Positions 192 to 28,549 of a DNA stretch of 32,000 nucleotides are shown here, piece after piece. The translations under genes and the position numbers were made by a program. A model generated the notes under the pieces. That model was not told the DNA's origin and ran no database searches. It saw only the letters and a list, made by a program, of their open reading frames with translations. The first letter of the stretch is position 1. Every line of letters begins with the position of its first letter. Source of the DNA: Acaryochloris marina S15 (lineage in GTDB: Bacteria > Cyanobacteriota > Cyanobacteriia > Thermosynechococcales > Thermosynechococcaceae); assembly GCF_018336915.1 (NCBI RefSeq), contig NZ_CP064923.1:5670001-5702000 (forward strand), given 5' to 3'.

Positions 192-249
192 TCTCAGTTC
201 AGCCCCCTGACTTGAAGTCATTGAAGCCATAAATACTCCAAAACGCAAA

Positions 250-274
250 GTGCCTGCTATTGACAAGCAGGCAC
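250..274. terminator. Stem-loop between convergent genes (GTGCCTGCT-attgaca-AGCAGGCAC)
   Basis: Perfect 9-bp stem with a 7-nt loop. It lies between the plus-strand stop at 189-191 and the minus-strand ORF end at 299. On the minus strand it is followed by the T-rich CTTTGCGTTTT. Confidence 0.55.
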
Positions 275-298
275 TCCAACTTTGCAGGGTGAAGTGAC

Positions 299-613
299 TT
301 ACCCCTGCTTCTTGTCTTCTTCAACAGCTTCCGCAGGGGGAGCAGCCTCCTTCAAGGTTGATCCAACAATCTTTTCACAGGTTCCAGCAGGCACATAAAT
401 CCACTCTTCTGGGTCATTATCGACTGTCGCTTTACCAGAGCAGTCATGCTTGCTCGTGCCACAGTCATTGAGGCCAGTCTTGACGATACCCGCACATTTT
501 TCAAACCCAGGCTTACCGGCAACTGCATTGTCAGATCGAGTCGCAACTAAACCAAGGGCAAGCACACTGGATAAAGCAGTGGTAACGGCAACGGCTTTGG
601 TCGTTGTTTTCAT
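299..613 (-). CDS. Secreted DUF2282-type four-cysteine protein (BufA1 / bufferin-precursor-like)
   Basis: ATG at 611-613. Signal-peptide-like N-terminus [24 protein letters not shown], then [45 protein letters not shown]. As I recall, this is the DUF2282 4-Cys signature. Confidence 0.65.
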
Positions 614-826
614 AATGGTAAATAGCCTTCAAGAGATTTAGTTCGTTGAGGTAGACAATCTAATACATGAGAATTTGCCCACATTAATAGTACGAACAAC
701 TCAGGCTAGCGGATGTAGACCTGCAAATATAATCAGGAGCGCCACAGAGGGTAGCTTCAGGGTAAATGATTGGAATTAAGACAAGCCATTGTTTCCATTG
801 TTTATCTAATGCCTAACCCTTAGCCC

Positions 827-1087
827 CTAACGAAGAGATTCACAGAGTGCATCAATATCTTGCTTGGCAATCTCACTGGCGGCTCGATGGAGCTTATATT
901 GCTGAGGGGGATGGGTCATGATCGCAATCACCGTTTCTATGGGTGGGCAACAAGGCTCATGACAGGCCAACTGACTAATTGACACCGGGATATCAGCAGG
1001 AATGGTAAAGGCTTCATAAACCCAGGCTTTCAGTTGTTCAATCTGTTCTGGATCCGCTTTAGGCGTAGATGTTTTAAACAAATCCAT
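827..1087 (-). CDS. Small Cys-rich hypothetical protein, last gene of the COG0523-WD40 operon
   Basis: ATG at 1085-1087 preceded by GGAGAG. It begins 23 nt after the WD40 stop on the same strand. Contains the motif CHEPCCPP. I do not recognise a family. Confidence 0.5.
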   Translation of the reverse strand: MDLFKTSTPKADPEQIEQLKAWVYEAFTIPADIPVSISQLACHEPCCPPIETVIAIMTHPPQQYKLHRAASEIAKQDIDALCESLR

Positions 1088-1110
1088 TGGAAATACTCTC
1101 CACTAAATAA

Positions 1111-2148
1111 CTAGCGAAATCCTTGCCCCCGTGAACTTTGGGTCCAAAGCTGCCATTCTCCTTGCTGACCCCCTAGGGCTAAGGTCTGGCCATCTGGACT
1201 CCAAGCCAGCGCTGAACCGCTGATGCCTTTTTGCGCTTGTATTAGCTTGTATCCACCTTGCCACAGACAGAGATAGTCATCCGCCGCTGCAGATACCAAA
1301 AGGGTGCTATTGGGCTGAAAGGCAATGGCATTGACTGCCTGCGTATGCCCATCCAATAGCTCGGCTTCCCAGCCATCCCCTTCACGTTGCCAGGTAGTGA
1401 CGCAGCTACCACTGGCTGCAGACAGAAGATGAGTAGCATCCACCACGGACCAGGCCAACTGCCGAACTTTGCCTGGGAAACCCGTCATGCGCCAGGGGGT
1501 TGTTTTATCCGAAGGCCAGACCACTAAGGTGGGATCTAAATTTCCTGAGGCTAAATATTGCCCGTCGGGTGACCAAGAGACACAGAGACTCGATCCTGAA
1601 ATCTCTCGAATTTCCGGATCTTGGTCCCAATCCTGCCAAATTTTGACCCCTTGATGGCCCCCCACCGCCAGCCAATCCTGCTGAGGATGCCAGGCTAAAT
1701 CTAAAACGGAAGAGCTTTCAAAAGCGAGAGTGGTCAGGACTTGTTGAGTCTCAGCTTCCCAGACCTGGGCATAGCGCCCCAAACTAAACACCAATTCTTG
1801 ACGCCGGGGATGCCAGGCTAGTTGATCCACCCAGGCGCGAGGATTCTCTAGACAAGTAACTAGGGTTGGTGGGTCTCCGCTCATCTCCCAAATAAAAACA
1901 CGGCCATCTTGCCCCCCTGCTGCCAGAAAATGGCCGTCAGCGGAGTAAGCCAAGGCATCCACTGACTGTCCGGTACCCGTTTGCAGACAATAGGTTTGCT
2001 GGGTCATCCGATTCAAGCACTGAACCGTACCCGCTCCATCGCAGGCGGCCACCTGCTGGCTATTGGGTGACCAGGCAATGGCCGTCACGTAATCATCTAA
2101 ACGCCCACGCCATTGACGTCCGAGGTGAGGCTGAGCTACACGAGGCAA
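1111..2148 (-). CDS. WD40-repeat beta-propeller protein (paralogue of 15201-16298)
   Basis: Repeated WD-like units (e.g. GHTQAVNAIAFQPNSTLLVSAAADDYLCLWQ, SPDGQYLASGNLDPTLVVW). The N-terminus MPRVAQPHLGRQWRGRLDDYVTAIAWS aligns from residue 1 with MPLLKPLAELSRHHHLSDYITAISWS of the paralogue. That supports the TTG start at 2148, which overlaps the COG0523 stop by 13 nt. Confidence 0.85.
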   Translation of the reverse strand: MPRVAQPHLGRQWRGRLDDYVTAIAWSPNSQQVAACDGAGTVQCLNRMTQQTYCLQTGTGQSVDALAYSADGHFLAAGGQDGRVFIWEMSGDPPTLVTCLENPRAWVDQLAWHPRRQELVFSLGRYAQVWEAETQQVLTTLAFESSSVLDLAWHPQQDWLAVGGHQGVKIWQDWDQDPEIREISGSSLCVSWSPDGQYLASGNLDPTLVVWPSDKTTPWRMTGFPGKVRQLAWSVVDATHLLSAASGSCVTTWQREGDGWEAELLDGHTQAVNAIAFQPNSTLLVSAAADDYLCLWQGGYKLIQAQKGISGSALAWSPDGQTLALGGQQGEWQLWTQSSRGQGFR

Positions 2149-3104
2149 GCTTGGAACTCCTGTTTTAACTGAGTTTCATCTAAATTGCGGCCAATAAACA
2201 CCAGCTCATTCTTGCGGGTTTCATTGGCTTTCCAAGGGCGATCTGCACGGCCATCAAACAGCATGTGGACGCCCTGAAACACAAACCGCTGATCTGCTCC
2301 AGCAATATTCAAAATCCCTTTCATGCGAAAAATATCTGGCCCTCTGGTTTGCAACAGATTTCCTAGCCAACTATTGAGTCGTTCGCCATCGATTTCCCCC
2401 GATTCTGTTAAGGCCACCGACCCCACGGTTTCGTCATGTTCATGGGCATCCTCTCCTAAAAACTCAGGGTCGATCTCCAAGGCTCGGTCCAGATCAAAGG
2501 CACTCACCCCCAAAATAGAGTCCATCTCCACCGATGCATCCTGAGTGCGGTAAATTTTGGCCATGGCATTCATAGAGCGGATTCGATTTTCTAGATCCAC
2601 CAAATCGGCTGCACTGACTAAATCGGTTTTATTGAGTAAAACCACATCCGCAAAAGCGATTTGCTCCTGGGCTTCATCTGCATCCCAATGTTGGTGAATA
2701 TGCTTAGCGTCTACGACCGTCACCACTGCATCCAGATTGAGCTGGGTTTGCATATCTTCATCCACAAAGAAGGTCTGGATCACTGGGGCCGGATCCGCTA
2801 GCCCTGTGGTCTCAATCACCATATGGTCGAACTTATCTCGTCGTCGCATCAGGTTGCCAATAATCCGAATCAGATCGCCCCTTACGGTGCAACAGATACA
2901 GCCATTGTTCATTTCAAAGATTTCTTCATCGGCATCGATCACCAGCTGATTATCAATGCCCACCTCACCAAATTCATTAACAATCACGGCCACTTTTTTG
3001 CCATGTTCATAGGTGAGAATGCGGTTGAGTAATGTTGTTTTCCCCGCTCCCAGATAGCCAGTTAGAACGGTGACGGGGACAGTACCTGTTGCAGCGGTAA
3101 CCAT
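2136..3104 (-). CDS. COG0523 (CobW/YjiA/ZigA/ZagA-type) metallochaperone GTPase
   Basis: Walker A GYLGAGKTTLLN, metal motif GCICCTVRGD, ETTG, NKTD and a CobW_C-like C-terminus. ATG at 3102-3104, 28 nt downstream of a Zur-type box. Confidence 0.9.
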   Translation of the reverse strand: MVTAATGTVPVTVLTGYLGAGKTTLLNRILTYEHGKKVAVIVNEFGEVGIDNQLVIDADEEIFEMNNGCICCTVRGDLIRIIGNLMRRRDKFDHMVIETTGLADPAPVIQTFFVDEDMQTQLNLDAVVTVVDAKHIHQHWDADEAQEQIAFADVVLLNKTDLVSAADLVDLENRIRSMNAMAKIYRTQDASVEMDSILGVSAFDLDRALEIDPEFLGEDAHEHDETVGSVALTESGEIDGERLNSWLGNLLQTRGPDIFRMKGILNIAGADQRFVFQGVHMLFDGRADRPWKANETRKNELVFIGRNLDETQLKQEFQACLV

Positions 3105-3131
3105 GATGATAGCCTCATCGGAGAATGGTTT

Positions 3132-3146
3132 AGATAACGATTATCA
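3132..3146. promoter_or_regulatory. Zur/Fur-type 7-1-7 operator (AGATAACGATTATCA)
   Basis: Matches 12 of 14 arm positions of TGATAAT-N-ATTATCA. Lies 28 nt upstream of the COG0523 start. Confidence 0.7.
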
Positions 3147-3357
3147 TTCTACAAATATTTCGACGTCAGTTGGGTGGCTTTACCTTAGCTTTAGCTTTTC
3201 AAGGCGATGGGGTTGATCCTGGATTTCTCACCAGCCAATTCCAACAAACTGAATAAGTGAGCAACATCAGTTAATTTAATCGAATATAGGTAACCGCTTT
3301 TGACTCACCCACTCAATCTGTTCTGTATTGATGATCCTCTACCTTGATTCAGTGAGT

Positions 3358-3510
3358 TGTCGCAATTGGGGCAGAAATGAGTGTCAGGCAACACAGTGTC
3401 GCAATACCTCATTTTTTGACGTGTTATCCGACACCTGGCATACAATCTACTGAATTGGGTGTTATGCAACAGGTGGCGTCTAGCATTACTTATAGATGCG
3501 TTATGCGACA
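3358..3510. repeat. Iteron-like array: five copies of a T(G/C)C(G/A)ACA-core motif at 38-39 bp spacing
   Basis: Inverted copies TGTCGCAAT at 3358-3366 and 3397-3405. Direct copies GTTATCCGACA at 3423-3433, GTTATGCAACA at 3461-3471 and GTTATGCGACA at 3500-3510. The array ends 63 nt upstream of the RusA-like ATG. Confidence 0.5.
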
Positions 3511-3572
3511 GCCTGACATATCACCATAGTTAGGTACCAAGTTCTAGTTTCTACAAAATATAGAATCAACAA

Positions 3573-4286
3573 ATGCAACGAATTAGACTAAAGGCTGAAG
3601 TAGAGCATCTCTTGAAGGTTTCCAACTCGCCATCAAAAGATGCACGCACTTTTTTAGTTGAGAAGTTTAATGCAATTAATGGCACCCAACTCGATCCAAC
3701 TAGCCTTCTCAAAGATGATGAACTAACTGTCCAGAGATGGATTGCTGGCAACACAGATTTGCATTTTCTTTCGGCTGAGTTGGCCAAGGTTTATAAGCGA
3801 AGCTATTTCTTCAACGAAGTCGATAAAGTTATTGCTATGCAGCATAGCCAGGAAAGATGTCTAATTTGTGGTTCAGTAAGCCAGGCTCGCTTTATCCCGA
3901 TTCGTATTTCGCCTAAATCTCATCAATCATTGACCCCTGACTTGAAACGGTACTACCTTGAGCAACTACAAAATCATCCCTTCATTCAAGGTGAAACCCA
4001 ATTCGATTCCTCTCATCGCTTATGTGTACAGCTAATTTGTGTATTGAAGGAAGGAAGGGATAAAGATGTCGATAACATGGCTAAGCTCATTTTGGATGGC
4101 ATTAAGGGGCAAGTTTTTCCCGATGATAAGCAAATCGATCATCTGCAGGTCGTCAAATTTCGGGCTAACGAAAGTGAAGAGTTCGTAAGTATTGGTGTTG
4201 CTGTAAGCACGCTCAATCAACATTCAGATGTATTATTTGGAGCAATCAATTCGGATTGGTCAGGGCAATCTCGTCTAAATATCTAA
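3573..4286 (+). CDS. RusA-family Holliday-junction-resolvase-like protein with an unassigned N-terminal extension of about 100 aa
   Basis: The C-terminal half carries EGRDKDVDNMAKLILDGIKGQVFPDDKQIDHLQVVKF. This matches the RusA catalytic signature (E. coli [33 protein letters not shown]). The gene and its flanks are visibly AT-richer than the surrounding operons. Confidence 0.7.
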   Translation: MQRIRLKAEVEHLLKVSNSPSKDARTFLVEKFNAINGTQLDPTSLLKDDELTVQRWIAGNTDLHFLSAELAKVYKRSYFFNEVDKVIAMQHSQERCLICGSVSQARFIPIRISPKSHQSLTPDLKRYYLEQLQNHPFIQGETQFDSSHRLCVQLICVLKEGRDKDVDNMAKLILDGIKGQVFPDDKQIDHLQVVKFRANESEEFVSIGVAVSTLNQHSDVLFGAINSDWSGQSRLNI

Positions 4287-4541
4287 TGCTTTGTAGATTT
4301 ACTTGCTTTTCTTTTTATGTTTCACCTAACATTTGCGTGCAACGGACTGTTGAGTAAAGGATCGGCTTATTTCAATAGGTTACCTGCAGCCGTTGACACT
4401 CACCATCAGATTTCAACGACACCAATGCTGAACTAAAATACAGAGTGTTGTTTGAAAGAACTCTCTGAAAGCCATGCAGAAAGAAAGCTAAAAGCGTCCT
4501 CATCCAGGTCGGGTAAGAAATCTAAGACCCTGGAGTAAAGG

Positions 4542-4757
4542 ATGGAAGTTTATACTTATTCTGAGGCAAGGCAAAATCTGTCAGAGCCTTTAAATCAAGC
4601 ACAGGCGGAAGAAGTAATCATTAAACGAAGAGATGGAGCTGTTTTCTCTATCAAAGCAAAGAAGCCAAAAAAATCTCCCTTTAATGTTGAAGGTATTGAA
4701 TCCACTGTGTCAAAGAAGCAAATTTTAGCAGCCGTGCGAGAGTCAAGAAAGTCGTAA
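4542..4757 (+). CDS. Phd/YefM-family type II antitoxin (orphan)
   Basis: MEVYTYSEARQNLSEPLNQAQAEEVIIKRRDGAVFSIKAKK is a typical Phd/YefM N-terminus. GGAG lies 7 nt upstream of the ATG. No intact toxin ORF follows. Confidence 0.7.
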   Translation: MEVYTYSEARQNLSEPLNQAQAEEVIIKRRDGAVFSIKAKKPKKSPFNVEGIESTVSKKQILAAVRESRKS

Positions 4758-4916
4758 ACGACGCTGGTGATTTTCCGCATTAATACAGTCAGCGTCAAGC
4801 CTTCATCGCTTGGCAAATTACCTAGCCAGTAGTAGCCCAAAACCTAATAACACGTTGAACCGCGTGAAGCCACAACTAGGCGTCCTAGTCACTGCTAAGA
4901 TTATCCCGCCAAGAAG

Positions 4917-5017
4917 AATGCGGTGATGGTTTACCTTGCTCTAGGGACACAGTCGCGATCGCTGACGTTTCTCAATTAGAGTCAGGACACGAGCGACGTT
5001 GTGAACTGCTGAGTCGG
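4917..5017 (+). repeat. Copy A of a roughly 100-nt direct repeat
   Basis: Ungapped hand alignment with 5701-5801 gives 81 of 101 identities. The conserved cores are CACAGTCGCGATC and TTCTCAATTAGA(G/A)TCAGGACACGAGC. Confidence 0.7.
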
Positions 5018-5173
5018 CTGGATATATGTATCTCGATCAGAAGCATCTCGTCTTCACACTTGCACCATAAGACTTAAGCCATTCTCCGAGACTGACAGAA
5101 TGAAATGTCTTTGAGCATCAGCTAAAATCGATAGATAACGATGTGCGATTGTGGTTTTTGCCACGACAAAATC

Positions 5174-5404
5174 ATGACTGAACTCCTTCAACAGGCGATC
5201 TCCCAAATCCAAAAACTCCCACCCCACCAGCAAGATGCGATCGCATCTCGATTTTTGGCAGAGTTGCAAGACGAGCAACAATGGGAAACCCGTTTTGCTG
5301 CTACAACAGACGATCAATGGGATCAGATGGCAGCAATGGTGCGGCAAGAGATCGCAGCAGGAGAAACAGTTCCACTGGGTGAGGTATTCCCAACACAACA
5401 GTGA
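5174..5404 (+). CDS. Putative antitoxin of the ParE/RelE-like toxin
   Basis: ATG at 5174 (MTELLQQAISQIQKLPPHQQDAIASRFLAEL...). Its stop overlaps the downstream toxin start in GTGA (5401-5404). It is small and acidic. Confidence 0.55.
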   Translation: MTELLQQAISQIQKLPPHQQDAIASRFLAELQDEQQWETRFAATTDDQWDQMAAMVRQEIAAGETVPLGEVFPTQQ

Positions 5405-5670
5405 AATCGAGTGTCACCAAGTCATTTCGAAAGCGGTTGAACAATCTTCCTGTATCCGTTCAGGAGCAAGCCGATAAAGCCTATGCCCTTTGGCAGGAAG
5501 ACCCCTATCATCCAAGTCTTCAGTTCAAACGTGTTAGTCAGAAGCAACTGATTTATTCTGCTCGTGTCAGCCTCAACTACCGTGTCTTGGGTTTGTTGGA
5601 ATCTGATCATATCTACTGGTACTGGATTGGCACGCATGATGAGTACGATGAATTACTGAAACGGATGTAG
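5401..5670 (+). CDS. ParE/RelE-superfamily type II toxin
   Basis: The pattern ...FRKRLNNLPVSVQEQADKAYALWQEDPYHPSLQFKRV...YSARVSLNYRVLGLLESDHIYWYWIGTHDEYDELL is typical of ParE-like toxins. GTG start, translationally coupled to the upstream ORF. Confidence 0.75.
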   Translation: MKSSVTKSFRKRLNNLPVSVQEQADKAYALWQEDPYHPSLQFKRVSQKQLIYSARVSLNYRVLGLLESDHIYWYWIGTHDEYDELLKRM

Positions 5671-5700
5671 TTTGAAGCGATCGGTGAAGCCCCTAAATGC

Positions 5701-5801
5701 AATGGGGGGATGGGTTACTTTGCTCACGAGGCACAGTCGCGATCTCCAACACTTCTCAATTAGAATCAGGACACGAGCAACTTTGTAAACTGCCGATTAG
5801 G
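5701..5801 (+). repeat. Copy B of the roughly 100-nt direct repeat
   Basis: See copy A. This copy ends 14 nt before the Uma2 ATG at 5815. Confidence 0.7.
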
Positions 5802-6029
5802 TTAGGTAACGGTTATGGAAACGCTAACCATCAATGCTTCAAAAGCAGCATTAACTGAAGCGCAGTTTTACAATATTTGTCGTCAAAATGAAGAATTGCG
5901 CTTTGAGATGACCGCACAGGGGGATCTAATCGTTATGCCTCCAGTTGGCGGTTTAAGTGGCGATCGCGAAATGTCGCTGGGTGCAAAAGTATGGAACTGG
6001 AATGATGCCTCTAGCTTAGGTCGGGTATT

Positions 6030-6987
6030 TATAGCAAGCGCCATTTTATTCAGGACATAATAAACTAGAGATACTGTTATGTCTTTCAATGGATGCCTAA
6101 AATCTACAGCTACGATTTACGTTGCAAAGTGATCGATGCTATTGAACTTGATGGCATGCCTCCCTCAGAAGCGAGTGACACCTTTCATATCAGTCGTAAC
6201 ACCATTAATCTATGGCAACGTCTCAAAGCAGAAACAGGTGATCTTCATCCCATCCCTAGACAACACCTTGGCCATAGCCACAAAATCACAGACTGGGATA
6301 AGTTTCGAGCTTTTGCTCAAGAACATCGCTATAAAACCCAAGCTCAGATGGCCGAGTTGTGGGAGGGGCAAATCAGTGAGCGTACTATTTCAAGAGCGCT
6401 GAAGAATATTGGATTTACTCGAAAAAAAAGACCTATGGCTACCGCCAACGCGATGAGCACAAACGGGCTGAGTTCGTCCAAAAGTTAACAACAGTAGACC
6501 CAGACGATATCGTCTATGCTGACGAGTCAGGGATGGACAATCGAGATGAGTATGACTATGGCTATGGTCCCAAAGGTGAGCGGGTCTATGCTTTAAAGTC
6601 TGGTAGCAGAAGTGGACGAGTCAATATGATTGCAGCTTTGAGAGGAAAGCAGCTCATGGCCCCGTTCACGATTGAAGGGGCTTGCAATCGCACCGTATTT
6701 GAAATTTGGCTTGAGACTTGTTTGATACCGATGCTCAAACCGGGGCAGAAGTTAGTCATTGATAATGCCACCTTCCATAAGGGAGGGCGAATTGAGCAAC
6801 TGGTAGAAGCCGCAGGATGTGAAGTGTGGTACTTGCCACCCTATTCTCCTGATTTGAATAAGATTGAACGGTCGTGGGCTTGGATTAAAAGTCGAATTAG
6901 ACACCAATTAGAGCACTTCGGTTCACTTAGAGAAGCAATGGAACATGTGTTGTACCTAGCGTCCTAATTAGAGTGGCGACTGCTATA
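6030..6987 (+). mobile_element. ISY100-like IS630/Tc1-mariner family insertion sequence, including flanking TA duplications
   Basis: Imperfect 27-bp terminal inverted repeats at 6030-6056 (TATAGCAAGCGCCATTTTATTCAGGAC) and 6961-6987; the reverse complement TATAGCAGTCGCCACTCTAATTAGGAC matches at 21 of 27 positions. TATA is present at both junctions, consistent with TA target duplication. The element is about 950 bp. Confidence 0.85.
6093..6967 (+). CDS. IS630-family transposase in two frames (HTH part 6093-6488; DDE part, ATG-delimited ORF 6533-6967)
   Basis: A -1 shift on the A8 run at 6422-6429 yields ...KKKTYGYRQRDEHKRAEFVQKLTTVDPDDIVYADESGMDNRDE..., a continuous transposase of about 290 aa. 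Confidence 0.8.
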
Positions 6988-7389
6988 GTTCTTCAACGGT
7001 GTTTCAATTGCCCAACGGTGCGAAACGATCACCGGATGTTGCCTGGGTCGAACAAAGTCGCTGGGATACCCTCACAAGAGAAGCGCAAGAACGATTTCCA
7101 CCCCTAGCTCCCGATTTTGTGATTGAGTTACGGTCTCGGACCGATGACTTAGCTGTGCTGCAAGCGAAAATGCAGGAATATGCAGAAAATGGTGTGCGGC
7201 TCGGTTGGCTGATCAAACCCCAGGATCAGCAAGTAGAGATCTATCAACCAGAACAGGATGTAGAGATGAGATCGCTGCCGACTCAACTATCAGGGGAAGA
7301 GGTATTACCAGGTTTTAACCTGGATTTACCGCAGTTTTAGGGGTTATGCCAGCGCGTTTAACCCCTATGCCCACCTAAGTACCTCTATG

Positions 7390-7849: not shown

Positions 7850-7864
7850 TGATTATCATTCTCA
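7850..7864. promoter_or_regulatory. Degenerate Zur/Fur-type box upstream of zur (TGATTATCATTCTCA)
   Basis: Matches 12 of 14 arm positions. Lies 65-79 nt upstream of the zur ATG. An extra TGATAAC half-site is at 7870-7876. Confidence 0.55.
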
Positions 7865-10542: not shown

Positions 10543-11974
10543 CAGCAATTGTAAATTCAAAATTTTGGCAAGCTAGGTTGTAGTCGTTGAGGATGTATTC
10601 ATACACTTGCAGAGCCCCAGACGATGAATGAAGGTGTTCTAAATTTCCCTCTCTTACTGCACTGGCTACATCAGCTCATTGAGCACCTCGATGATCCACG
10701 TCAACCCAGTAATGGCACCAAATTTAGTCTCAAAGATATTGTATTAGGCGCATTTGCTGTCTTCTTTATGCAATGTCCTTCGTTTCTGGAGTACCAACGC
10801 CATGTTCATAGTCGTCATGGTCGTGACAACGCCCAAGCCCTCTTTGAGTTAACAGAACTCCCCACGAGCAACCAAATCAAGAATGTTTTGGACTTGATCG
10901 CATTTCGTCTTCTGTTTCCCATTTTTTATCAAATTTATAGCGTTCTCCTACGACGAGGTTATCTAGAGCAATATAAGGTTCTAGGTGGACACCTGTTGGT
11001 AGGGCTAGACGGCAGCGAGTATTTTTCCTCAAACTGGATTTGTTGCGATCAGTGTTCTACCAAAACCCATCGGGATGGGAGTGTCACCTATACGCACACC
11101 GCCGTGTTGCCCGTCCTCGTTTGTCCGGAAATTGAACATGTCATTTCTCTGGCCCCAGAGTTCATTCGTCCTCAAGATGGTGCGGAGAAACAGGATAGTG
11201 AAACCGCTGCGGCCAAACGGTGGATCAAGGGGCATGCTCAAGGGTTTGACGGAGCCAAGATTACGGTTCTTGGCGATGACCTCTATAGCCGTCAACCGAT
11301 GGTGGAGACTTGTTTAGAGGATGAGTTGAACTTCATTTTTGTCTGTTTGCCCTCCTCCCATCCAGAGCTATATGAATGGGTAGAGTATTTAGAAGGTATT
11401 GGAGATGTTGAGCATCTAGAGACTCGGGGCTGGAACGGTCGCTATCATGAAATTTGTCAGTATCGCTATTACAATCGCATCCCCCTGCGTGAGGAGCTAC
11501 CAGCAGTGATGGTCAACTGGTGCGAAGTCTCTGTTACTCGTGCTGCTGATGGAAAGACTATGTATCACAACGCGTTCATTACTCACCATTTCATCAATGA
11601 CCAAAGTGTGGCCGAGATTGTCAGTGCTGGACGTGCCCGATGGAAAGCGGAGAATGAAGGACACAATGTCCTCAAAACCAAGGGCTATCACTTAGAACAT
11701 AATTTTGGTCATGGTCAGAAGAACCTTGCTGCTGTGCTATTGGTACTCAACCTGTTGGCATTCTTATTTCATACCGTCTTGCACTTGGTGGACTCCACTT
11801 ATCAACGCATGCGAAAGCAACGGGGAACCCGACAAGGCTTTTTTCACGATATTCAGACTTTGACCAAATACTTGCTCTTTGAGAGTTGGGAGCATTTGCT
11901 CCAGTTTATGTTGGATGATCCAGAGCCTCGAATAGCAGCCGATACCTCATGAAATATTGAATTTACAATTGCTG
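10543..11974 (+). mobile_element. IS4-superfamily insertion sequence (1432 bp)
   Basis: Perfect 18-bp terminal inverted repeats: CAGCAATTGTAAATTCAA at 10543-10560 and TTGAATTTACAATTGCTG at 11957-11974. Perfect 9-bp target duplication ACTAAACAC at 10534-10542 and 11975-11983. Confidence 0.9.
10624..11952 (+). CDS. DDE transposase (IS4-type, YREK-like motif)
   Basis: 442 aa and intact. Candidate catalytic residues lie in VGLDGSEYF, VLGDDLYS and ARWKAENEGHNVLK. Confidence 0.85.
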   Translation: MNEGVLNFPLLLHWLHQLIEHLDDPRQPSNGTKFSLKDIVLGAFAVFFMQCPSFLEYQRHVHSRHGRDNAQALFELTELPTSNQIKNVLDLIAFRLLFPIFYQIYSVLLRRGYLEQYKVLGGHLLVGLDGSEYFSSNWICCDQCSTKTHRDGSVTYTHTAVLPVLVCPEIEHVISLAPEFIRPQDGAEKQDSETAAAKRWIKGHAQGFDGAKITVLGDDLYSRQPMVETCLEDELNFIFVCLPSSHPELYEWVEYLEGIGDVEHLETRGWNGRYHEICQYRYYNRIPLREELPAVMVNWCEVSVTRAADGKTMYHNAFITHHFINDQSVAEIVSAGRARWKAENEGHNVLKTKGYHLEHNFGHGQKNLAAVLLVLNLLAFLFHTVLHLVDSTYQRMRKQRGTRQGFFHDIQTLTKYLLFESWEHLLQFMLDDPEPRIAADTS

Positions 11975-13435: not shown

Positions 13436-14557
13436 CTAACAGATACAGTCGTTGTCGCAACAAGACAGGTCATCTAAAAACATTCCTTGTTGGCGGTAGG
13501 TTTCTAAAGGCGCAGGGTCAAGGTCTAAACGGCGTGCGATCGCATCAGCCACTACCGCAAACCGCTGCCGAAATTTATAGATAAAGCAAAAAATAAGACC
13601 GTGATGACGGACGGAGGGGCCAACCACAAACAGCCCTGGCGTCAGAGTAGACTCATCTTGATCATTCAAAATGGCATGCCCCTCTGCCCAAAAGAACAAC
13701 GACGCAATCTGCTGCAAGCTGGTCTCAAAACCAGTACAGAGAATCGGGGGATGAACCGTCAGCCATTTCTGATATTCGCTAAAGACGGCATAGCCCCCCG
13801 ACACTTTTTTGACTTCCTCAATGGAGACATTGCCAATCAGTTCGAGACGGCCCGTTTGATGGGCCAACATCACGCGCTGCAGCGTATAGGGTGACAAAGA
13901 AATGCTCGGATCCGTCTCCTGGTTCCCCCACACCCCAGTCCGATCTAAAACCCTGACGTTCTTTCCTAAGGCGACTAAGTGGGTGGCGGCATCCATACCA
14001 CTTTCATAGCCGCCGATGATCGTAAATTCATCCCCTGGCAAATTGGCCCAAGAGCGAATCTGAGAATTGTGAATGCAATGGTCTGCTCCCAAAAATGGAT
14101 TTAACCTTGGGTATTGGAATTCCCCAGCAGCCCAGATCACAAACTGGGTTTTGACGTCTCCGCCAGACGTCTTTAGGATGAAGCCGCGACACTGAGAAAG
14201 GGGCTCAATGGCCAAAACATCCGTTTCTGTCTTCACAGGCAAATGGAAGTGATCGACCACCGTTTGCAAATAGAGTGCATACTGCTGGCCATTGATATGT
14301 TCTCGTCGAAAGGCGATCGCTGGAGACGTTTTCAAGGTAATGGCATTGAGATCGAGTAGGCCAAAACCATGACTCGGAAACGAGGGGGTAATCAAGTTCA
14401 TCTCTGCTGGCCAGCGGAGAAAAGACGCCCCCACCTGCAGCCGATCCAGCAGGATAAAGTTTTCCATGCCTAGCTCCTGAAGCGCGACCGCACAACCCAC
14501 CCCGGCTGGCCCCGCACCGACTATCACTACGTCATAGGAAGAATTTGTCTGTTTCAT
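13436..14557 (-). CDS. FAD/NAD(P)-binding oxidoreductase (Pyr_redox/FMO-like) with a Cys-rich C-terminus
   Basis: Rossmann motif YDVVIVGAGPAGVG near the N-terminus if the ATG at 14555-14557 is used. A second dinucleotide motif is FTIIGGYESGMD. The tail is LSCCDNDCIC. The upstream TTG at 14626 would place the Zur box inside the CDS. Confidence 0.75.
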   Translation of the reverse strand: MKQTNSSYDVVIVGAGPAGVGCAVALQELGMENFILLDRLQVGASFLRWPAEMNLITPSFPSHGFGLLDLNAITLKTSPAIAFRREHINGQQYALYLQTVVDHFHLPVKTETDVLAIEPLSQCRGFILKTSGGDVKTQFVIWAAGEFQYPRLNPFLGADHCIHNSQIRSWANLPGDEFTIIGGYESGMDAATHLVALGKNVRVLDRTGVWGNQETDPSISLSPYTLQRVMLAHQTGRLELIGNVSIEEVKKVSGGYAVFSEYQKWLTVHPPILCTGFETSLQQIASLFFWAEGHAILNDQDESTLTPGLFVVGPSVRHHGLIFCFIYKFRQRFAVVADAIARRLDLDPAPLETYRQQGMFLDDLSCCDNDCIC

Positions 14558-14591
14558 GGATAGACTTGCTGCCAGCAGGATTTTAGTAGAA

Positions 14592-14606
14592 TGATTATCA
14601 TTATCA
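14592..14606. promoter_or_regulatory. Zur/Fur-type box (TGATTATCATTATCA)
   Basis: Matches 13 of 14 arm positions. Lies 35 nt upstream of the flavoprotein ATG. Confidence 0.7.
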
Positions 14607-14664
14607 TATTTTTTGGAATCAACCAACGCTGAATCAAAATAATCGATACCCGTCCCACCGACCC

Positions 14665-17780: not shown

Positions 17781-17795
17781 TGATAATCATTATCA
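17781..17795. promoter_or_regulatory. Zur/Fur-type box (TGATAATCATTATCA, both arms perfect)
   Basis: Perfect 7-1-7 palindrome upstream of the DUF1636 gene. Confidence 0.8.
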
Positions 17796-17982: not shown

Positions 17983-18915
17983 CTAAGAAGGCATAGGCCT
18001 TTGCAAGAGCCACTCCATCACCCGTTGCTTATGGGAGTCAATGCTGAAGACTCGCACTGCGTTACCTTGATATTCCGTCATTCTGCGATTGAGACTGTTC
18101 AGAACTTGCTGTGGGTTTGTCCCCTCAAGGGGTGGACAGCTTTGCCAAGCCCCCACTTTGAAATGTCTGGCATCGGCCTGTTCAATGCCAATTTGATTCC
18201 CCAACCGAAGTTGCCCCAGAATCTGTTCCAGCACTTCAGCGCTCAGCTGTTCTTGAAGCTTTTCATTCTGAGGTCGAGCTATCTCAGAGCGATGGCCATT
18301 GTTCAACGGTGCAGCACAGGCAATATCGTCTGCACAGCGATAGCCCGCCAGTAAAGCTCGATTGATCTCCACCACATGATGAGAAAAACGATGATCAGTT
18401 GTCTTGGCATCCGGTAGTCGGTCGGCCTCGCTTTGGTGGGTAATCACAACCCCTGATCCAACATATTTTCCAGGTGGAATTTCCACATCCTGGATAAGCG
18501 CATGCATCATCACAATACAGCGGTGCCCTACCTTGGAATTAAACACCGTTGATCGAAAGCCGATGAAACAATCATCGCCAATATAAGCAGGCCCGTGAAT
18601 CAAAGCCATATGGGTAATGCAGGTATGTTCACCAATCCAGACCGAGTAAGACTCACCATCATCTCCGGTGACTCGGCCTCGTTCTAAGCCATGTATGACC
18701 ACACCATCCTGAATATTAGTATTTGCACCAATGTAAAAGGGCATACCCTCATCTGCTCGAATGGACGTGCCAGGTGCGATTAAGACTTGGTGTCCCAGAC
18801 GAACATCTCCGATCAAGCTCGTTGAGGAATGCACATAGGCCGACTCACTAATTTGAGGTTGATCCAGCCCTTGATCCCAAGGGGTCGGAGGTGAAGGTTG
18901 CTGACGTAGAGGCAT
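17983..18915 (-). CDS. CcmM-like protein: gamma-carbonic-anhydrase domain plus a single RbcS-like SSUL module
   Basis: The N-terminal 200 aa or so is near-consensus CcmM gamma-CA ([74 protein letters not shown]). The C-terminus is [37 protein letters not shown]...[22 protein letters not shown], which is one SSUL repeat. Confidence 0.8.
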
Positions 18916-22692: not shown

Positions 22693-23667
22693 ATGCTTCC
22701 CATCCCTGGACTATTTGAATATCGCCTGCCCGTTACCCTGATAACGGGCTTTTTGGGGAGTGGTAAAACCACTCTGCTGAACCATCTCATGCGCAATCTG
22801 GGGGATCGACGAGCGGCCGTTTTTGTCAATGAATTCGGAGCGATTGACATTGATAGCCAAATTCTAGTGACCGTGGATGAAGATCTAGTGGCTTTGTCTA
22901 ACGGCTGTATCTGTTGCCAAATTAGGGATGATTTTCTCATGGCCTTCCGACGGGTCTTGGCTTATAACCAAATGCAAACGTCCGCCGGGAAAAAGGGGCT
23001 AGATGCCATTTTCTTGGAAACATCCGGGGTGGCCGATCCCTATCCGCTGATGCTCACTTTTAGAGCCACCGAACTCTTTAGCCTGACCCGTTTAGATGCG
23101 ATCCTAACCGTTGTGGATGCTGAGGCCTTTACTGCTGAACATTTCCAAAGTCAGGCTGCTCTTGCCCAAATTCAACATGGCGACATTATCCTGCTGAATA
23201 AAACCGATCTAGTCGATCAAGAACAGCTCAGGTCCGTAGAAACTGAGATTCAGCGCCTGAAGCCCCAGGCCAAGATGCTACCCATGACCTATGGCCAAGT
23301 TCCTCTGTCTAGCGTTTTGGATGTGGATCTCTATTCTGAGGAAATGGCAGCCGGCCCACCCTCAGAAACCCAGCATCTCAAGGATGATGGGTTTGTAGCG
23401 GTACCCTTTGAAAGTGATCGCCCCTTTAACTTGAGAAAATTCCAGCAATTTCTGGACTATCAGCTACCCTCAGAAGTCTTTCGGGCCAAGGGGGTTCTCT
23501 GGTTTGACGAAAGTCCCCGCAGACATCTGTTTCAACTGAGTGGTAAACGGAGCCAACTGCAGGATGAGTCGTGGTTGGACTCCCCTAAGAACCAACTGGT
23601 GTGCATTGGCCGCAACTTGGATTCAGAACAATTACAACATCAGCTCCATCAGTGTCTTGCCCCATGA
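22693..23667 (+). CDS. COG0523 metallochaperone GTPase
   Basis: GFLGSGKTTLLNHL, GCICCQIRDD, ETSG, NKTD and a CobW_C-like end. Starts 23 nt after folE. Confidence 0.9.
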   Translation: MLPIPGLFEYRLPVTLITGFLGSGKTTLLNHLMRNLGDRRAAVFVNEFGAIDIDSQILVTVDEDLVALSNGCICCQIRDDFLMAFRRVLAYNQMQTSAGKKGLDAIFLETSGVADPYPLMLTFRATELFSLTRLDAILTVVDAEAFTAEHFQSQAALAQIQHGDIILLNKTDLVDQEQLRSVETEIQRLKPQAKMLPMTYGQVPLSSVLDVDLYSEEMAAGPPSETQHLKDDGFVAVPFESDRPFNLRKFQQFLDYQLPSEVFRAKGVLWFDESPRRHLFQLSGKRSQLQDESWLDSPKNQLVCIGRNLDSEQLQHQLHQCLAP

Positions 23668-24422
23668 GTAGTCCTGCTGTTATTGCCGTCGCTGGCCCCT
23701 GTGGCAGTGGTAAAACCACCTGGATCAACCAGTCTTTAAAAGATGCAACGGCTCCACTCTCATATTTCTATTCGGGACTAGGCAGGAACCCCGTTGACCT
23801 GATGCGGATTGGTTATTGTTTCCCCTCGGTACAGGTCATGTCTGATCTCCCGGCTCCCCAGGTGTTCTCCTCTCTACCAGATGGAGCAATTATCTATGTG
23901 GAGCTAGACTTTCCTGAACTCTTAAAACCTCTTCTGCCGAAGGTGCGTTTCTGTCATCAAGTGGCTGTAATTCCGCCTCATCTGCAAGATTCTGCCTGGC
24001 ATCAATGGGCAGATCAGATTATTCCGGGGAACGATATTGCCATTCCAGATGCGGCCAAGCCACCTGAGCGATGGCACGCCCCTTTGCAAGGTCAAGTCTT
24101 TGATCCTGCCAGCTTAGAAGTGGTGCTGACGGAACTGATGGAAGGCGCCTATGGTGATATCCATCGAGTAAAGGGCATCTTTGAGATGCCCGATGGCCAA
24201 GCCCTTTACATTGATTTTGTGGCAGGGCTGGAGGGGGTTGAATATACCGAACTCAGTATTCCCCGTTGGCTAGAGGGACGCCCCGATCGCTGGAGTGGCA
24301 TGGAAGTGATGGGCAACAACCTCCAGCCAGAAATCATCTCCCAAACCCTATTGGATGGATGCCTAACCGATGAAGTCATTGCCTATTATCAGCAGCAATA
24401 CCAAGCCTTAAGCCCCGTTTAA
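23664..24422 (+). CDS. Divergent COG0523-like P-loop protein lacking the CxCC metal motif
   Basis: The ATG at 23664 overlaps the upstream stop (ATGA). The P-loop AGPCGSGKTTWINQ is retained. There is no GCxCC and no NKxD. The CobW_C-like segment IHRVKGIFEMPDGQALYIDFVAG is retained. Confidence 0.65.
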   Translation: MSSPAVIAVAGPCGSGKTTWINQSLKDATAPLSYFYSGLGRNPVDLMRIGYCFPSVQVMSDLPAPQVFSSLPDGAIIYVELDFPELLKPLLPKVRFCHQVAVIPPHLQDSAWHQWADQIIPGNDIAIPDAAKPPERWHAPLQGQVFDPASLEVVLTELMEGAYGDIHRVKGIFEMPDGQALYIDFVAGLEGVEYTELSIPRWLEGRPDRWSGMEVMGNNLQPEIISQTLLDGCLTDEVIAYYQQQYQALSPV

Positions 24423-26063: not shown

Positions 26064-27160
26064 TACAGATAAGCACTTAGCTAAAATTAATTACATAATC
26101 ATCGCCATAGGTTTTCAAAACTCTTTCCACATATTCGACCAAAGATGACCACCCCCAGTAGGCACTCATTTCAATCCACTGATATTTCATGAATTGCCAC
26201 AGACGCTCAATCAAATTTAGATGGGGAGAATAGCTTGGTAACTCAAACAAGGTAATTCCCCGTTCGGCCCACTCTGCCTTCATCTCATAGATTGCTTGGC
26301 TCGTATGGATAGGGGCTTGATCCATCACAATGACGGTGGGCAACTCCACGTCAGTAAAGAAGGTATCAATGCAATGACTGACAACCTCACTGGTGATGGT
26401 CTGTTCTGATGTATAAGCATGTAGCCCTTGTCGTCGACTCAAAAACCCCAGAACATTCAAGCGTTTACTTGAACGAGTCGGTATTTCCAGATAAGTCCCT
26501 ATGGGTTGCCATCCGTAGGGAATACAGGGGACTAACGAAAAACCACTCTCATCCATAAAGAATAGGTGGATGTCTCCCTTCTCTTCTTGTTTCTTGAGAT
26601 GTTCTAACTGCTGTTTTTTTCGAGGTAGTCGGCATATAAAGGCTGGCCTGATGTCCCTTGGCGAAAGCGATGCCAGCTCATATCCATCTGCTTCAAGACG
26701 CGTTTAACGGTGGCCTTTGACACGCGCACTGACCACTGCTGTTCAATCTGAGCTAGCACCCGATTGAGTTGGATGGGAGATGCCTGAGTCCACTCATAAA
26801 TCTGCTGTTGTTGGTCGGGATTAAACATCGGTTTTCGACCTCGGCCTGGGCGATTATAGAGTCCTGCAAAACCACGGTTATTCCAAGCCTTAAGCCAGTT
26901 GTACACGGTTTTAGGACTCACACTAAAAAGGGAGGCTAAGGTGTAGGGACTCACACCCTGGGCAGACAAAATGAGGCAATGGGCGCGTTGTCTGACCTGA
27001 TGATGGCGACTACAGCGATAAATCCGATGCAATAAGCGTAAGCTTTCGGTGGAGATAGGACGGACAATTGACATCAAATCAATGGATGTAAAAAAGAGGA
27101 CTCAGGTAGTTTACAACCTGGAAATTCTATGTAATTAATTTTGTCCATCTGCTTAATTTA
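26064..27160 (-). mobile_element. IS630-family insertion sequence (about 1.1 kb)
   Basis: Inverted terminal repeats: CAGATAAGCACTTAGCTAAAATTAATTACATA at 26066-26097 versus TATGTAATTAATTTTGTCCATCTGCTTAATT at 27128-27158. The inner 15 bp are perfect and the outer part is imperfect. TA is present at both junctions (26064-26065 and 27159-27160). Confidence 0.8.
26077..27077 (-). CDS. IS630-family transposase in two frames (HTH part 27077-26604, DDE part 26556-26077)
   Basis: A -1 shift on the A7 run (plus-strand T7 at 26614-26620) gives ...LEKKQQLEHLKKQEEKGDIHLFFMDESGFSLV..., a continuous transposase. Confidence 0.8.
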
Positions 27161-27163
27161 GAG

Positions 27164-28549
27164 GGCTCTCCGGTAATTAGCGTGGTGACACCCTACATAT
27201 AGTGTTTATTCCTTAGTCATCCCTATGGAATGATCTGAGGAGGTACTTCAGAACGAGAGTGTCATGGATAACTCAATTCGCATTCCCCTCAACCTTCCCG
27301 ATGTTCAAGTTCTAGAGCTATCGAAGACGGAACGAGGGGATTGGCTGATCAAAATTGAGAGTACTCTGCAAGGAACAACCTGCCACAAATGTGGACATGA
27401 GATTACTGACCTTCACTGCCATGATCAGGCTCTTCGAATTCGTCACTTGCCATTGTTCGAAGTACCAGTGTATTTAGAAATTCGGCCCAAGCGCTATCGA
27501 TGCGGGTATTGCGATGACCATCCCACAACAACTCAACGCTTAGAATGGCATGAACCTCGTAGTCCCAATACCAAAGCTTATGAGCATTGGCTTCTGCGTA
27601 TCCTGATCAACTCAACGGTCTCAGATGTTGCTAGGAAACTAGGCGTTAGTGAGGATGTCGTCAGTGGCACCATTGATCGCTGGATTGCCTGTCAAGTTGA
27701 CTGGAGCGAATATTTAGACCTCCAAGTCATCGGGATTGATGAGATTTCTCTGAAAAGAGGCCACCGTGATTTTGTAGTTTTGATCACGATTCCTACCACA
27801 GGCGGAGTAGACATATTGGCAGTTCTGGCCGACCGCAAACAACAGACCGTTGCAAATTTTCTTCAATCGATTCCCCTTCATTTACGCCAAACCATTGAGC
27901 GGGTTTGTACTGATATGTATCAAGGATTTGTCAGTGCAGTCCGTGAACAACTCCCTCAAACAAAAATTGTCATTGACCGCTTTCATGTGGCCAAAGCCTA
28001 TCGTAATGGTGCCGATACAGTTCGTAAACGGGAGGTCAAACGTCTACGCCAAGAACTCCCTAAGCAAGACTATGACAGTATCAAAGGTGCGATGTGGGCC
28101 TTTCGAAAACGGCCTGAGAATCTCCAGGAGTCAGAACAACAGTTGCTTGAGCGAGTGTTTGCTTATTCTCCTGAGATGAAGCAGGCCTACAAACTCCGAG
28201 AGGAATTGACACAGATATTTGAGGGTAGGTACACCAAAAACGGAGCTAAATGTGCCATCCGGGCTTGGTGTAAACGAGTCCTCAAAAGTGACATCAAGGA
28301 TTTTGAGAGTTTCCTGACCACTGTCAACAATTGGATGGATGAGATGACCAACTATTTTCTGGAGGGATGGACCAGTGGCTTTGTCGAAGGATTTAACAAC
28401 CGAGTTAAGGTCCTAAAAAGACGATGCTACGGTATTTTCGATATTGAAAGGCTCTTCCAAAGAATTTCGCTTGACCTCAATGGGTATCAGACTTTTGCCT
28501 TGACCTAAACACTATATCTAGCGGCTATCACGCTAATTCCCAGAGAGCC
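27164..28549 (+). mobile_element. ISL3-family insertion sequence (1386 bp)
   Basis: Imperfect terminal inverted repeats of about 42 bp (GGCTCTCCGGTAATTAGCGTG... at 27164 and ...CACGCTAATTCCCAGAGAGCC ending at 28549). Perfect 8-bp target duplication ATTTAGAG at 27156-27163 and 28550-28557. Confidence 0.9.
27264..28508 (+). CDS. ISL3-family transposase
   Basis: Zn-finger CHKCGH...CGYC, IGIDEISLKRGHRDFVVLIT and DRFHVAK. 414 aa and intact. Confidence 0.9.
   Translation: MDNSIRIPLNLPDVQVLELSKTERGDWLIKIESTLQGTTCHKCGHEITDLHCHDQALRIRHLPLFEVPVYLEIRPKRYRCGYCDDHPTTTQRLEWHEPRSPNTKAYEHWLLRILINSTVSDVARKLGVSEDVVSGTIDRWIACQVDWSEYLDLQVIGIDEISLKRGHRDFVVLITIPTTGGVDILAVLADRKQQTVANFLQSIPLHLRQTIERVCTDMYQGFVSAVREQLPQTKIVIDRFHVAKAYRNGADTVRKREVKRLRQELPKQDYDSIKGAMWAFRKRPENLQESEQQLLERVFAYSPEMKQAYKLREELTQIFEGRYTKNGAKCAIRAWCKRVLKSDIKDFESFLTTVNNWMDEMTNYFLEGWTSGFVEGFNNRVKVLKRRCYGIFDIERLFQRISLDLNGYQTFALT

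Follow-up and report, generated by a model that had tools for sequence, protein, structure and literature searches.

What might a zinc-starved cyanobacterium gain by producing a COG0523 GTPase together with a WD40 beta-propeller and a small cysteine-bearing protein? This question is raised by an operon in a 32,000-nucleotide (nt) stretch of Acaryochloris marina S15 (contig NZ_CP064923.1, positions 5,670,001 to 5,702,000), the whole of which is referred to here as the window. Three genes are found on its minus strand, in the order COG0523, WD40 and an open reading frame (ORF) for a protein of 86 amino acids, termed here the mini-protein. The role and the clients of bacterial zinc-linked COG0523 proteins are still an open question (PMC6103462, PMC3323870). 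The best explanation of our observations is that the operon is a Zur-repressed, tricistronic and conserved three-protein module for zinc starvation. We regard it as very probable that the three genes form such a conserved zinc-starvation module. That the module serves to allocate zinc is the leading explanation overall, held with slightly less than even confidence, and the specific division of roles among the GTPase, the mini-protein and the propeller is put forward tentatively.

The operon and its zinc control

The three tightly packed genes were described in the original prediction and all of their coordinates (Table 1) were confirmed. The COG0523 and WD40 genes overlap by 13 nt and the WD40 stop codon is separated from the mini-protein start by 23 nt. 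Public contigs encoding an identical GTPase carry the same gene calls of 322, 345 and 86 amino acids, the overlap included. The TTG codon is the sole in-frame start ahead of the first propeller blade, and the position of the AGGAG sequence before it supports both this start and translational coupling to the COG0523 gene. We found no terminator-like site between the three genes, and terminator-like matches in the region were no commoner than in shuffled sequences. The DNA of the operon is about 88% identical to that of an Acaryochloris metagenome-assembled genome (MAG) and of A. marina MBIC11017.

The predicted Zur box ahead of the operon also holds at its coordinates. Mismatches were counted against the cyanobacterial consensus TGATAATNATTATCA, a 7-1-7 palindrome, and the box lies 27 nt from the first ATG (3104). 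Only one promoter-like site was observed across positions 200-3600 and its -10 element sits within the Zur box, a geometry that would fit repression by occlusion. The operon thus has the palindromic box in its promoter that is expected of a Zur-regulon member, with two mismatches and overlapping the -10 element. Its core is almost identical to that of the Cyanothece PCC 7424 site given in supplementary file 5 of Haas et al. (2009). Across the window, ten matches to the consensus were found at three mismatches or fewer where 1.65 were expected, and none of 100 shuffled windows reached ten. These matches reduce to six independent sites (3132, 7850, 14592, 17781, 21931 and 31170), three of which are perfect.

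A FUR-family gene, probably zur, is located about 4 kb from the operon and is likely to encode its regulator. This gene has its own Zur box 20 nt 5' of the ORF, which suggests autoregulation. Its placement agrees with the description of the A. marina GTPase gene as being 'in the neighbourhood of a zur gene' (PMC3323870). In Anabaena, the corresponding gene all1751 is on the Zur-regulon list of a review in which most entries are flagged as experimentally confirmed (PMC6103462).

The first gene encodes a COG0523 GTPase with cobW/G3E (PF02492, E 1e-62, residues 10-185) and CobW_C (PF07683, E 3e-28, residues 228-321) domains. Its Walker A motif, GYLGAGKTT (G16-T24), follows the GxxGxGK(S/T) pattern, and the CxCC motif is found in GCICCT as C69, C71 and C72 (codons 2900-2889). 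The protein matches the YjiA structure 1nij at E 3e-59 and is 95% identical to an A. marina protein (locus L005). The numbering of H34 and C69 is that of B0CCJ8/AM1_3031 (PMC3323870), and AM1_3031 is very probably its ortholog. From the 'COG0523-5-WD40' operon type and the near-identity to the A. marina gene, we infer that the GTPase is a member of subfamily 5 in the COG0523 scheme of Haas et al.; it shows the trait of the prokaryotic members, which is a WD40 neighbour, often with a Zur site ahead. It falls short of the NCBIfam equivalog cutoffs for ZigA (217.8 against 600), CobW (222 against 332.1) and the YjiA-type family PRK11537 (254.7 against 361). A second COG0523 GTPase encoded in the window shares 34% identity with it.

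The second gene encodes a beta-propeller with WD40 repeats along the whole protein. PF00400 matches it in four significant stretches and many propeller-domain models match across residues 18-339. Its best sequence match in the PDB is 2ymu, a generic cyanobacterial WD40 protein. A special kinship with CIAO1 was considered and rejected, as the 60 best PDB sequence matches listed do not include CIAO1.

Table 1. Positions of the operon, its control elements and related features in the window
Feature	Position	Strand	Remarks
COG0523 G3E GTPase, 322 amino acids, short-linker type	3104-2136	minus	Pfam cobW and CobW_C
WD40 beta-propeller, 345 amino acids	2148-1111	minus	TTG start; Pfam WD40 E 2e-38
Acidic mini-protein, 86 amino acids	1087-827	minus	unannotated family; GGAGAG ahead of start
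CHEPCCPP codons	941-964	minus	C42 at 964-962, C47 at 949-947
AGGAG Shine-Dalgarno sequence for WD40	2157-2161	minus	within 3' end of COG0523; 8 nt ahead of TTG 2148
Zur box TGATAATCGTTATCT	3146-3132	minus	7-1-7 palindrome; 2 mismatches to TGATAATNATTATCA
Sigma-70-like promoter	3140-3169	minus	-35 CTGACG, 18-nt spacer, -10 GATAAT (3145-3140)
zur, FUR family, 146 amino acids	7830-7390	minus	PF01475 E 1e-24; own Zur box 7850-7864
Second WD40 gene	16298-15201	minus	37% identical to operon propeller
DUF2396/TIGR02652	15198-14665	minus	2 nt after second WD40 gene; CPICC...CPRH zinc-ribbon-like motif

The third gene and its linkage to the pair

The combination of a Zur box, a GTPase and a propeller is a published comparative-genomics observation, this genus included. 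Haas et al. (2009, PMC2770081) reported that genes of prokaryotic COG0523 subfamily 5, which also holds eukaryotic proteins, cluster with WD40-repeat genes. Candidate Zur sites were listed there before 'COG0523-5-WD40' in Nostoc PCC 7120 (all1751) and in six Cyanothece strains, among them PCC 7424, 8801, 8802, 51142 and 7425, and Zur-site operons of the form znuA-(X)-COG0523-5-WD40, with X unnamed, and znuCBA-COG0523-5-WD40-sapB were given for Prochlorococcus and the alpha-proteobacteria respectively (PMC2770081). In 2012, Barnett et al. (PMC3323870) presented a model of A. marina AM1_3031, whose gene adjoins a WD-40 gene and lies near zur, and they described the COG0523-WD40 association as strongly conserved and as being of unclear significance. 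The suggestion in the original prediction that a dedicated propeller partner might be undescribed for COG0523 is therefore overtaken by these two papers. On the other hand, the conserved adjacency that it had proposed as a test was observed here, with most of the COG0523/WD40 junctions in 42 loci overlapping by 13, 4 or 1 nt. Our full-text literature searches returned no functional study that pairs COG0523 with WD40, WD repeat or beta-propeller.

The published operons (all1751, Cyanothece PCC 7424_3189 and AM1_3031) resemble that of the window in the type and position of the Zur box and in the order of GTPase then WD40. They are described as two genes, apart from the unnamed X of Prochlorococcus, whereas the window adds a conserved third member. 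The small two-cysteine gene is neither named nor analysed in the searchable text and supplements of Haas et al. (2009) and Barnett et al. (2012). Within the searchable literature, the third gene appears to be a new part of the system.

The mini-protein belongs to a family with the signature SISQLxCxEPxCPPxETVIAV. Six residues, W22, C42, C47, P48, E51 and T52 in the window numbering, were found to be invariant in a wide family alignment. The three clustered cysteines pointed out in the original prediction are present in the window protein, but at the family level only C42 and C47 are conserved. Position 46 is occupied by G, D or N in relatives, so that Cys at this position is specific to the lineage of the window and the family motif is Cx4C rather than a three-Cys cluster. 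The family is acidic, its median isoelectric point (pI) being about 5.5. Exactly two Cys are present in most members, which are without His-rich or Cys-rich stretches.

When 1.84 billion representatives were searched with a profile, we obtained at least 1,116 mini-family clusters at 50% identity with E of 1e-3 or better, 324 of them at E of 1e-10 or better, and a profile search of a database clustered at 90% identity gave at least 4,030. The best 150 of the 1,116 matches are stand-alone proteins of 73-165 amino acids, and no fusion to a GTPase or propeller was observed among them. Named sources of the family include cyanobacteria, Gemmataceae and Anaerolineales, and matches in genomes include MAGs labelled Acidobacteria and Poribacteria. 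All source names seen for relatives are 'hypothetical protein'. No Pfam or NCBIfam match was found for the mini-protein, nor for 18 members of the family even at E of 10 or less.

The linkage of the mini-protein gene was studied in two scans, both seeded on the CPPxETVIA motif. The genomic scan took one genome per species by motif search and confirmed 468 loci, of which the best 80 were used; in these, the GTPase, propeller and DUF1636 genes were located by tblastn. For the metagenomic scan the profile was built from distant members, and the best 80 of its 364 loci, which carry no taxonomy, were retained. In the genomic loci, COG0523 was found within 3 kb of the mini-protein gene in 54 of 80 and WD40 in 40 of 80; of the 50 loci flanked by 3 kb or more on each side, 37 had COG0523 and 28 had WD40. 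Every one of these nearby genes is co-directional with the mini-protein gene and none was on the opposite strand. A close ortholog of the window GTPase is present in about 44 genomic loci, with 77-82% identity among cyanobacteria. The association is tighter still in those metagenomic loci that extend 1.5 kb or more to either side of the gene, where COG0523 lies within 3 kb in 33 of 34 and WD40 in 31 of 34, and a single opposite-strand case was seen in the metagenomic set.

The order of the three genes was observed to vary. The commonest arrangement is mini-GTPase-WD40, while GTPase-WD40-mini is that of Acaryochloris and Coleofasciculus and WD40-mini-GTPase that of Pleurocapsales, Moorena and Xenococcus. 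A longer string, fur-GTPase-WD40-mini-GTPase, is frequent in the metagenomic loci. The trio is kept together in cyanobacteria, Planctomycetota and MAGs labelled Acidobacteria or Poribacteria, often beside fur/zur, znuABC or ZIP genes. In all, at least 70 loci with the three genes together were collected (within L004-L170). As examples, a Gemmataceae MAG has znuACB-x-mini-GTPase-WD40-DUF1826, one locus has fur divergent from mini-GTPase-WD40-ZnuA-ABC and another reads fur-x-GTPase-WD40-mini-GTPase-DUF3386-ZIP. Since the linkage outlasts rearrangement, is seen in different phyla and preserves both strand and overlap, it is strong evidence of shared function, although it is evidence of no particular mechanism.

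The same data bear on whether the three genes are merely co-regulated members of the Zur regulon with independent jobs and no complex. The mini-protein gene does occur away from the pair too, as this explanation would allow. However, the trio persists through at least three gene orders and across phyla, co-directional and often with overlapping stop and start codons, which goes far beyond what shared regulation needs, and we consider mere co-regulation to be quite improbable.

Zur boxes were also found outside the window. In loci of A. marina and Coleofasciculus they lie 5' of the COG0523 gene, and in several loci from Nostocales and Leptolyngbyaceae 5' of the mini-protein gene. Zur control is established only for the arrangement seen in the window and for some loci in which the mini-protein gene comes first. 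In mini-GTPase-WD40 loci of cyanobacteria, a spacer of 110-300 nt without a Zur box was noticed 5' of the GTPase gene (L020 6274-6385, L059 6268-6377, and L032, L045 and L063). Some of these spacers have a conserved palindrome of the type GAAAGTTCAC..GAACTTTTC and others have the elements TTTACAA...GTGAACATTT...CATAAT, which hint at another regulator or promoter.

The GTPases of the module also differ in length. Those of non-cyanobacterial origin are about 450 amino acids long and have an interdomain insert of about 130 amino acids that is not His-rich (L078-L083, L084, L086, L168 and L170). The Acaryochloris-type GTPase is without this insert, and the same feature was described for the Prochlorococcus/Synechococcus branch by Barnett et al. 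(PMC3323870). We considered whether the insert could be an embedded mini-protein domain and rejected this, as no Cx4C signature was seen on inspection.

Possible roles of the three proteins

The AlphaFold2 model of the mini-protein is a confident small fold with a mean predicted local distance difference test score (pLDDT) of 81. Its topology is alpha-beta3-alpha, where helix 13-26 is followed by strands 35-41, 50-56 and 62-66 and by helix 75-85. The Cys pair is placed in the loop between the first and second strands, and its geometry with E51 is taken from topology only. A sequence-profile search of the PDB gave chance-level LysR matches only (best E 0.37). Foldseek gave no significant PDB match for the model; the best (E 0.04) has a dsRBD-like topology with a template modelling (TM) score of about 0.4-0.5.

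These fold matches recall another system. In mycobacteria, the COG0523 protein MRF recruits the hibernation factor MPY upon zinc depletion, and the trio is similar in that a zinc-starvation COG0523 protein accompanies a small alpha/beta protein. The mini-protein might then be a ribosome- or RNA-associated factor of the dsRBD or HPF kind that the GTPase recruits under zinc starvation, a reading that we judge to be very improbable. Its best fold matches are dsRBD-type domains and the HPF chain 7m4z_v (TM 0.52, E 0.17), yet all of them are non-significant, and the weak match of the GTPase to the NCBIfam MRF model (NF047431) reaches 31 bits against a cutoff of 375. Furthermore, the mini-protein and its family are acidic, unlike RNA binders, and the invariant Cys pair would be left without a role. 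An identity as dsRBD or HPF was rejected as unsupported on account of this acidity and of the non-significant fold matches.

The zinc-allocation reading assigns the three proteins the following roles. When zinc is sufficient, Zur would occlude the -10 element; when zinc falls, Zur would leave the box and the three proteins would be co-produced. The GTPase would hold zinc at its CxCC motif, and the two-Cys loop of the mini-protein (C42 and C47, with E51) might act as a metal hand-off or ligand-exchange partner, by analogy with UreE and HypA. The propeller may serve as a docking platform that joins the GTPase, the mini-protein and one or more clients, much like the client-recruiting adaptor suggested in the original prediction. 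The tight gene coupling might also, as that prediction proposed, lead to production of the proteins in fixed stoichiometry. Client recognition would in this way be outsourced to separate subunits in bacteria, whose members of the family would lack the flexible N-terminal extension of eukaryotic ZNG1.

Part of this proposal draws on nickel insertion, where the G3E GTPase UreG is partnered by UreE and HypB by HypA, both being small metal-binding partners. The UreG-UreE-UreF/UreD and HypB-HypA systems resemble the trio, by analogy, in that a G3E GTPase is encoded together with a scaffold that is not catalytic and with a small protein that binds metal, but neither the mini-protein nor the propeller has a sequence or fold relation to UreE, UreF, UreD or HypA, and the metal and the client of the trio need not be the same. 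Another likeness is with the cytosolic iron-sulfur targeting complex, which contains the WD40 protein CIAO1 and CIA2, a small DUF59 protein with a reactive Cys. Here too a WD40 platform and a small Cys protein would cooperate in cofactor delivery, although the likeness is one of analogy and, unlike CIA2, the mini-protein members gave no DUF59 match at E of 10 or less. CIAO1 is mentioned in PMC8469502.

The role proposed for the propeller is based on its conservation. No conserved cluster of Cys, His or Asp that could form a metal site was found in an alignment of 40 COG0523-adjacent orthologs, in which conservation is confined to the Trp, Gly, Asp and His positions typical of WD repeats. This speaks for a scaffold rather than a metallated client and weakens the earlier idea that the propeller is the client. 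More generally, either the propeller or the mini-protein could itself be the client of the GTPase, with no further target, the mini-protein being for example a small zinc store or buffer. We consider this improbable. The tight gene coupling and the invariant Cys pair would suit such a client, and the clients of other COG0523 proteins often have adjacent genes, as with folE beside the second COG0523 gene of the window. However, the WD40 protein is without a conserved Cys/His cluster, the mini-protein would be a poor store because it usually has two Cys and no His-rich or Cys-rich stretch, and a client that is needed solely under zinc scarcity and has no other activity is hard to rationalise.

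A functional parallel to the zinc-allocation reading is ZNG1-MetAP1. ZNG1 is, like the GTPase of the window, a CxCC COG0523 GTPase for zinc deficiency, and it belongs to Haas subfamily 5 as do the WD40-linked prokaryotic members. It grasps its client MetAP1, at the zinc-finger region, through a flexible N-terminal extension (PMC10642216). This extension is absent from the window GTPase, where 8 residues precede the GTPase domain (its Pfam match begins at residue 10) and 15 precede the P-loop at G16. In addition, two extra proteins are co-encoded in the window and no link to MetAP was seen. The lack of the extension makes a split of labour among separate subunits plausible. A broader form of the proposal, in which the mini-protein represents a widespread class of two-Cys COG0523 accessory subunits and forms with the WD40 protein a bacterial zinc-insertion complex, the counterpart of ZNG1, is rather unlikely. 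The N-terminal motif of ZNG1 contains Cys-Pro, and the mini-then-GTPase order could be a precursor of the eukaryotic extension. This is a weaker suggestion that depends on the Cys-Pro motif, and a literature search for the ZNG1 motif string gave no match.

Several observations count against a zinc-allocating trio. Two Cys per chain are too few for a full zinc site, so that one must suppose either a dimer or a site to which the GTPase contributes. H67 of the mini-protein is invariant among cyanobacterial members only. Most mini-GTPase-WD40 loci of cyanobacteria among the 80 genomic loci have no canonical Zur box (two mismatches or fewer), and therefore either Zur control is not universal or the box differs. 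The mini-protein gene sometimes lies beside a COG0523 gene closer to the second copy of the window (about 50% identity), often in loci with DUF1636, and about seven fully flanked loci have no GTPase, WD40 or DUF1636 gene near it. It adjoins DUF1636 in 15 of the 80 genomic loci, mostly in Nostocales and Leptolyngbyaceae, and DUF1636 also accompanies CobW-type genes. The metal handled could also be other than zinc.

This last point corresponds to hypothesis (i) of Haas et al. (2009), where the module would act during zinc starvation on another metal (such as cobalt, iron or nickel) and load zinc-independent paralogs. The idea is quoted in PMC3323870, and the window is rich in Zur-controlled paralogs of zinc enzymes (thrS, hisI, folE and a gamma-carbonic-anhydrase-like gene); DUF1636 as a frequent neighbour of the mini-protein gene would fit as well. 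Against this, the recurrent neighbours of the trio are znuABC, ZIP and fur/zur, and the eukaryotic relatives, ZNG1, transfer zinc (PMC10642216). We therefore hold a metal other than zinc to be improbable, and an allocation of zinc is the reading that we retain.

The surrounding zinc island and the significance of the module

As a whole, the window forms a dense zinc-starvation island in an Acaryochloris-like cyanobacterium. It contains paralogs of thrS, hisI and folE, a gene like those of gamma-carbonic anhydrase (gamma-CA) and RbcS, and two genes each for COG0523 and WD40 proteins. A Zur-boxed divergent pair has the thrS paralog, a SnoaL-like gene, the hisI paralog and the gamma-CA/RbcS-like gene on one arm and folE, the second COG0523 gene, an ORF with CobW_C only and a metallophosphoesterase gene on the other. 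The gamma-CA/RbcS-like gene (17983-18915, 310 amino acids), the last in the thrS-hisI paralog string, has hexapeptide repeats and one domain like the RuBisCO small subunit, and is similar to a short CcmM. The ORF after the second COG0523 gene (23601-24422, 273 amino acids) has a weak CobW_C match only and its called start overlaps COG0523 by 67 nt.

Another Zur-boxed string comprises DUF1636, a Crp-like gene, the second WD40 gene and DUF2396. The paralogous WD40 gene in a zinc context, which the original prediction had noticed, is thus borne out, and it lies downstream of the perfect Zur box at 17781-17795. In one locus outside the window (L173, 2696-5528), COG0523 is followed by WD40 and then by DUF2396, the last two overlapping, so that DUF2396 takes the place of the mini-protein; another DUF2396 locus (L174) is without WD40. 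A relationship between DUF2396 and the mini-protein was rejected, as profile comparison with hhalign gave a probability of 0.14%. The Zur box at 14592-14606 is located inside a mechanically called ORF (13436-14626) for a Pyr_redox_3 flavoprotein. The true start of this ORF is probably the in-frame ATG at 14557-14555, and the box would then belong to the promoter of a distinct unit under Zur control.

Other genes were also noticed in the window. A DUF2282 gene (299-613) with a signal-peptide-like N-terminus lies on the strand of the operon, 213 nt downstream of it. Its synteny is confined to four Acaryochloris loci, which leaves it outside the conserved module, and no DUF692 partner gene was visible up to the window edge. 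We take DUF2282 proteins to be precursors of bufferin-type copper-binding peptides. A FeoB-like gene is split into an N-terminal part (13030-11963) and a Gate-domain part (10560-9760) by an insertion of about 1.43 kb, bordered by 23-nt inverted repeats (10543-10565 and 11952-11974) that are 96% complementary; the insertion encodes a 442-amino-acid ORF with a weak IS4-type match only. Mobile-element debris is found around the zinc genes at 3573-7340 and 26077-28508, with a RusA-like gene, two IS630-type elements (each with split helix-turn-helix and DDE ORFs), an ISL3 transposase gene, a Uma2-family gene and PIN-domain genes.

Our results suggest that the mini-protein family is a near-constant companion of the GTPase-propeller pair and gives this pair a candidate for its missing partner. 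The family is large, unannotated and easily missed at a length of about 85-100 amino acids, and naming it would better annotate thousands of genomes. If the three genes prove to be unrelated members of the Zur regulon, the gain would be an annotation note only. Through a conserved third member and its invariant Cys pair, what was a curiosity of two genes becomes a system of three defined components that is open to reconstitution, with C42, C47 and the CxCC motif of the GTPase as residues for mutation and the propeller usable as a bait for clients. If the zinc-insertion complex is true, the binding partner of the propeller would reveal which bacterial proteins are the long-sought clients of the subfamily.

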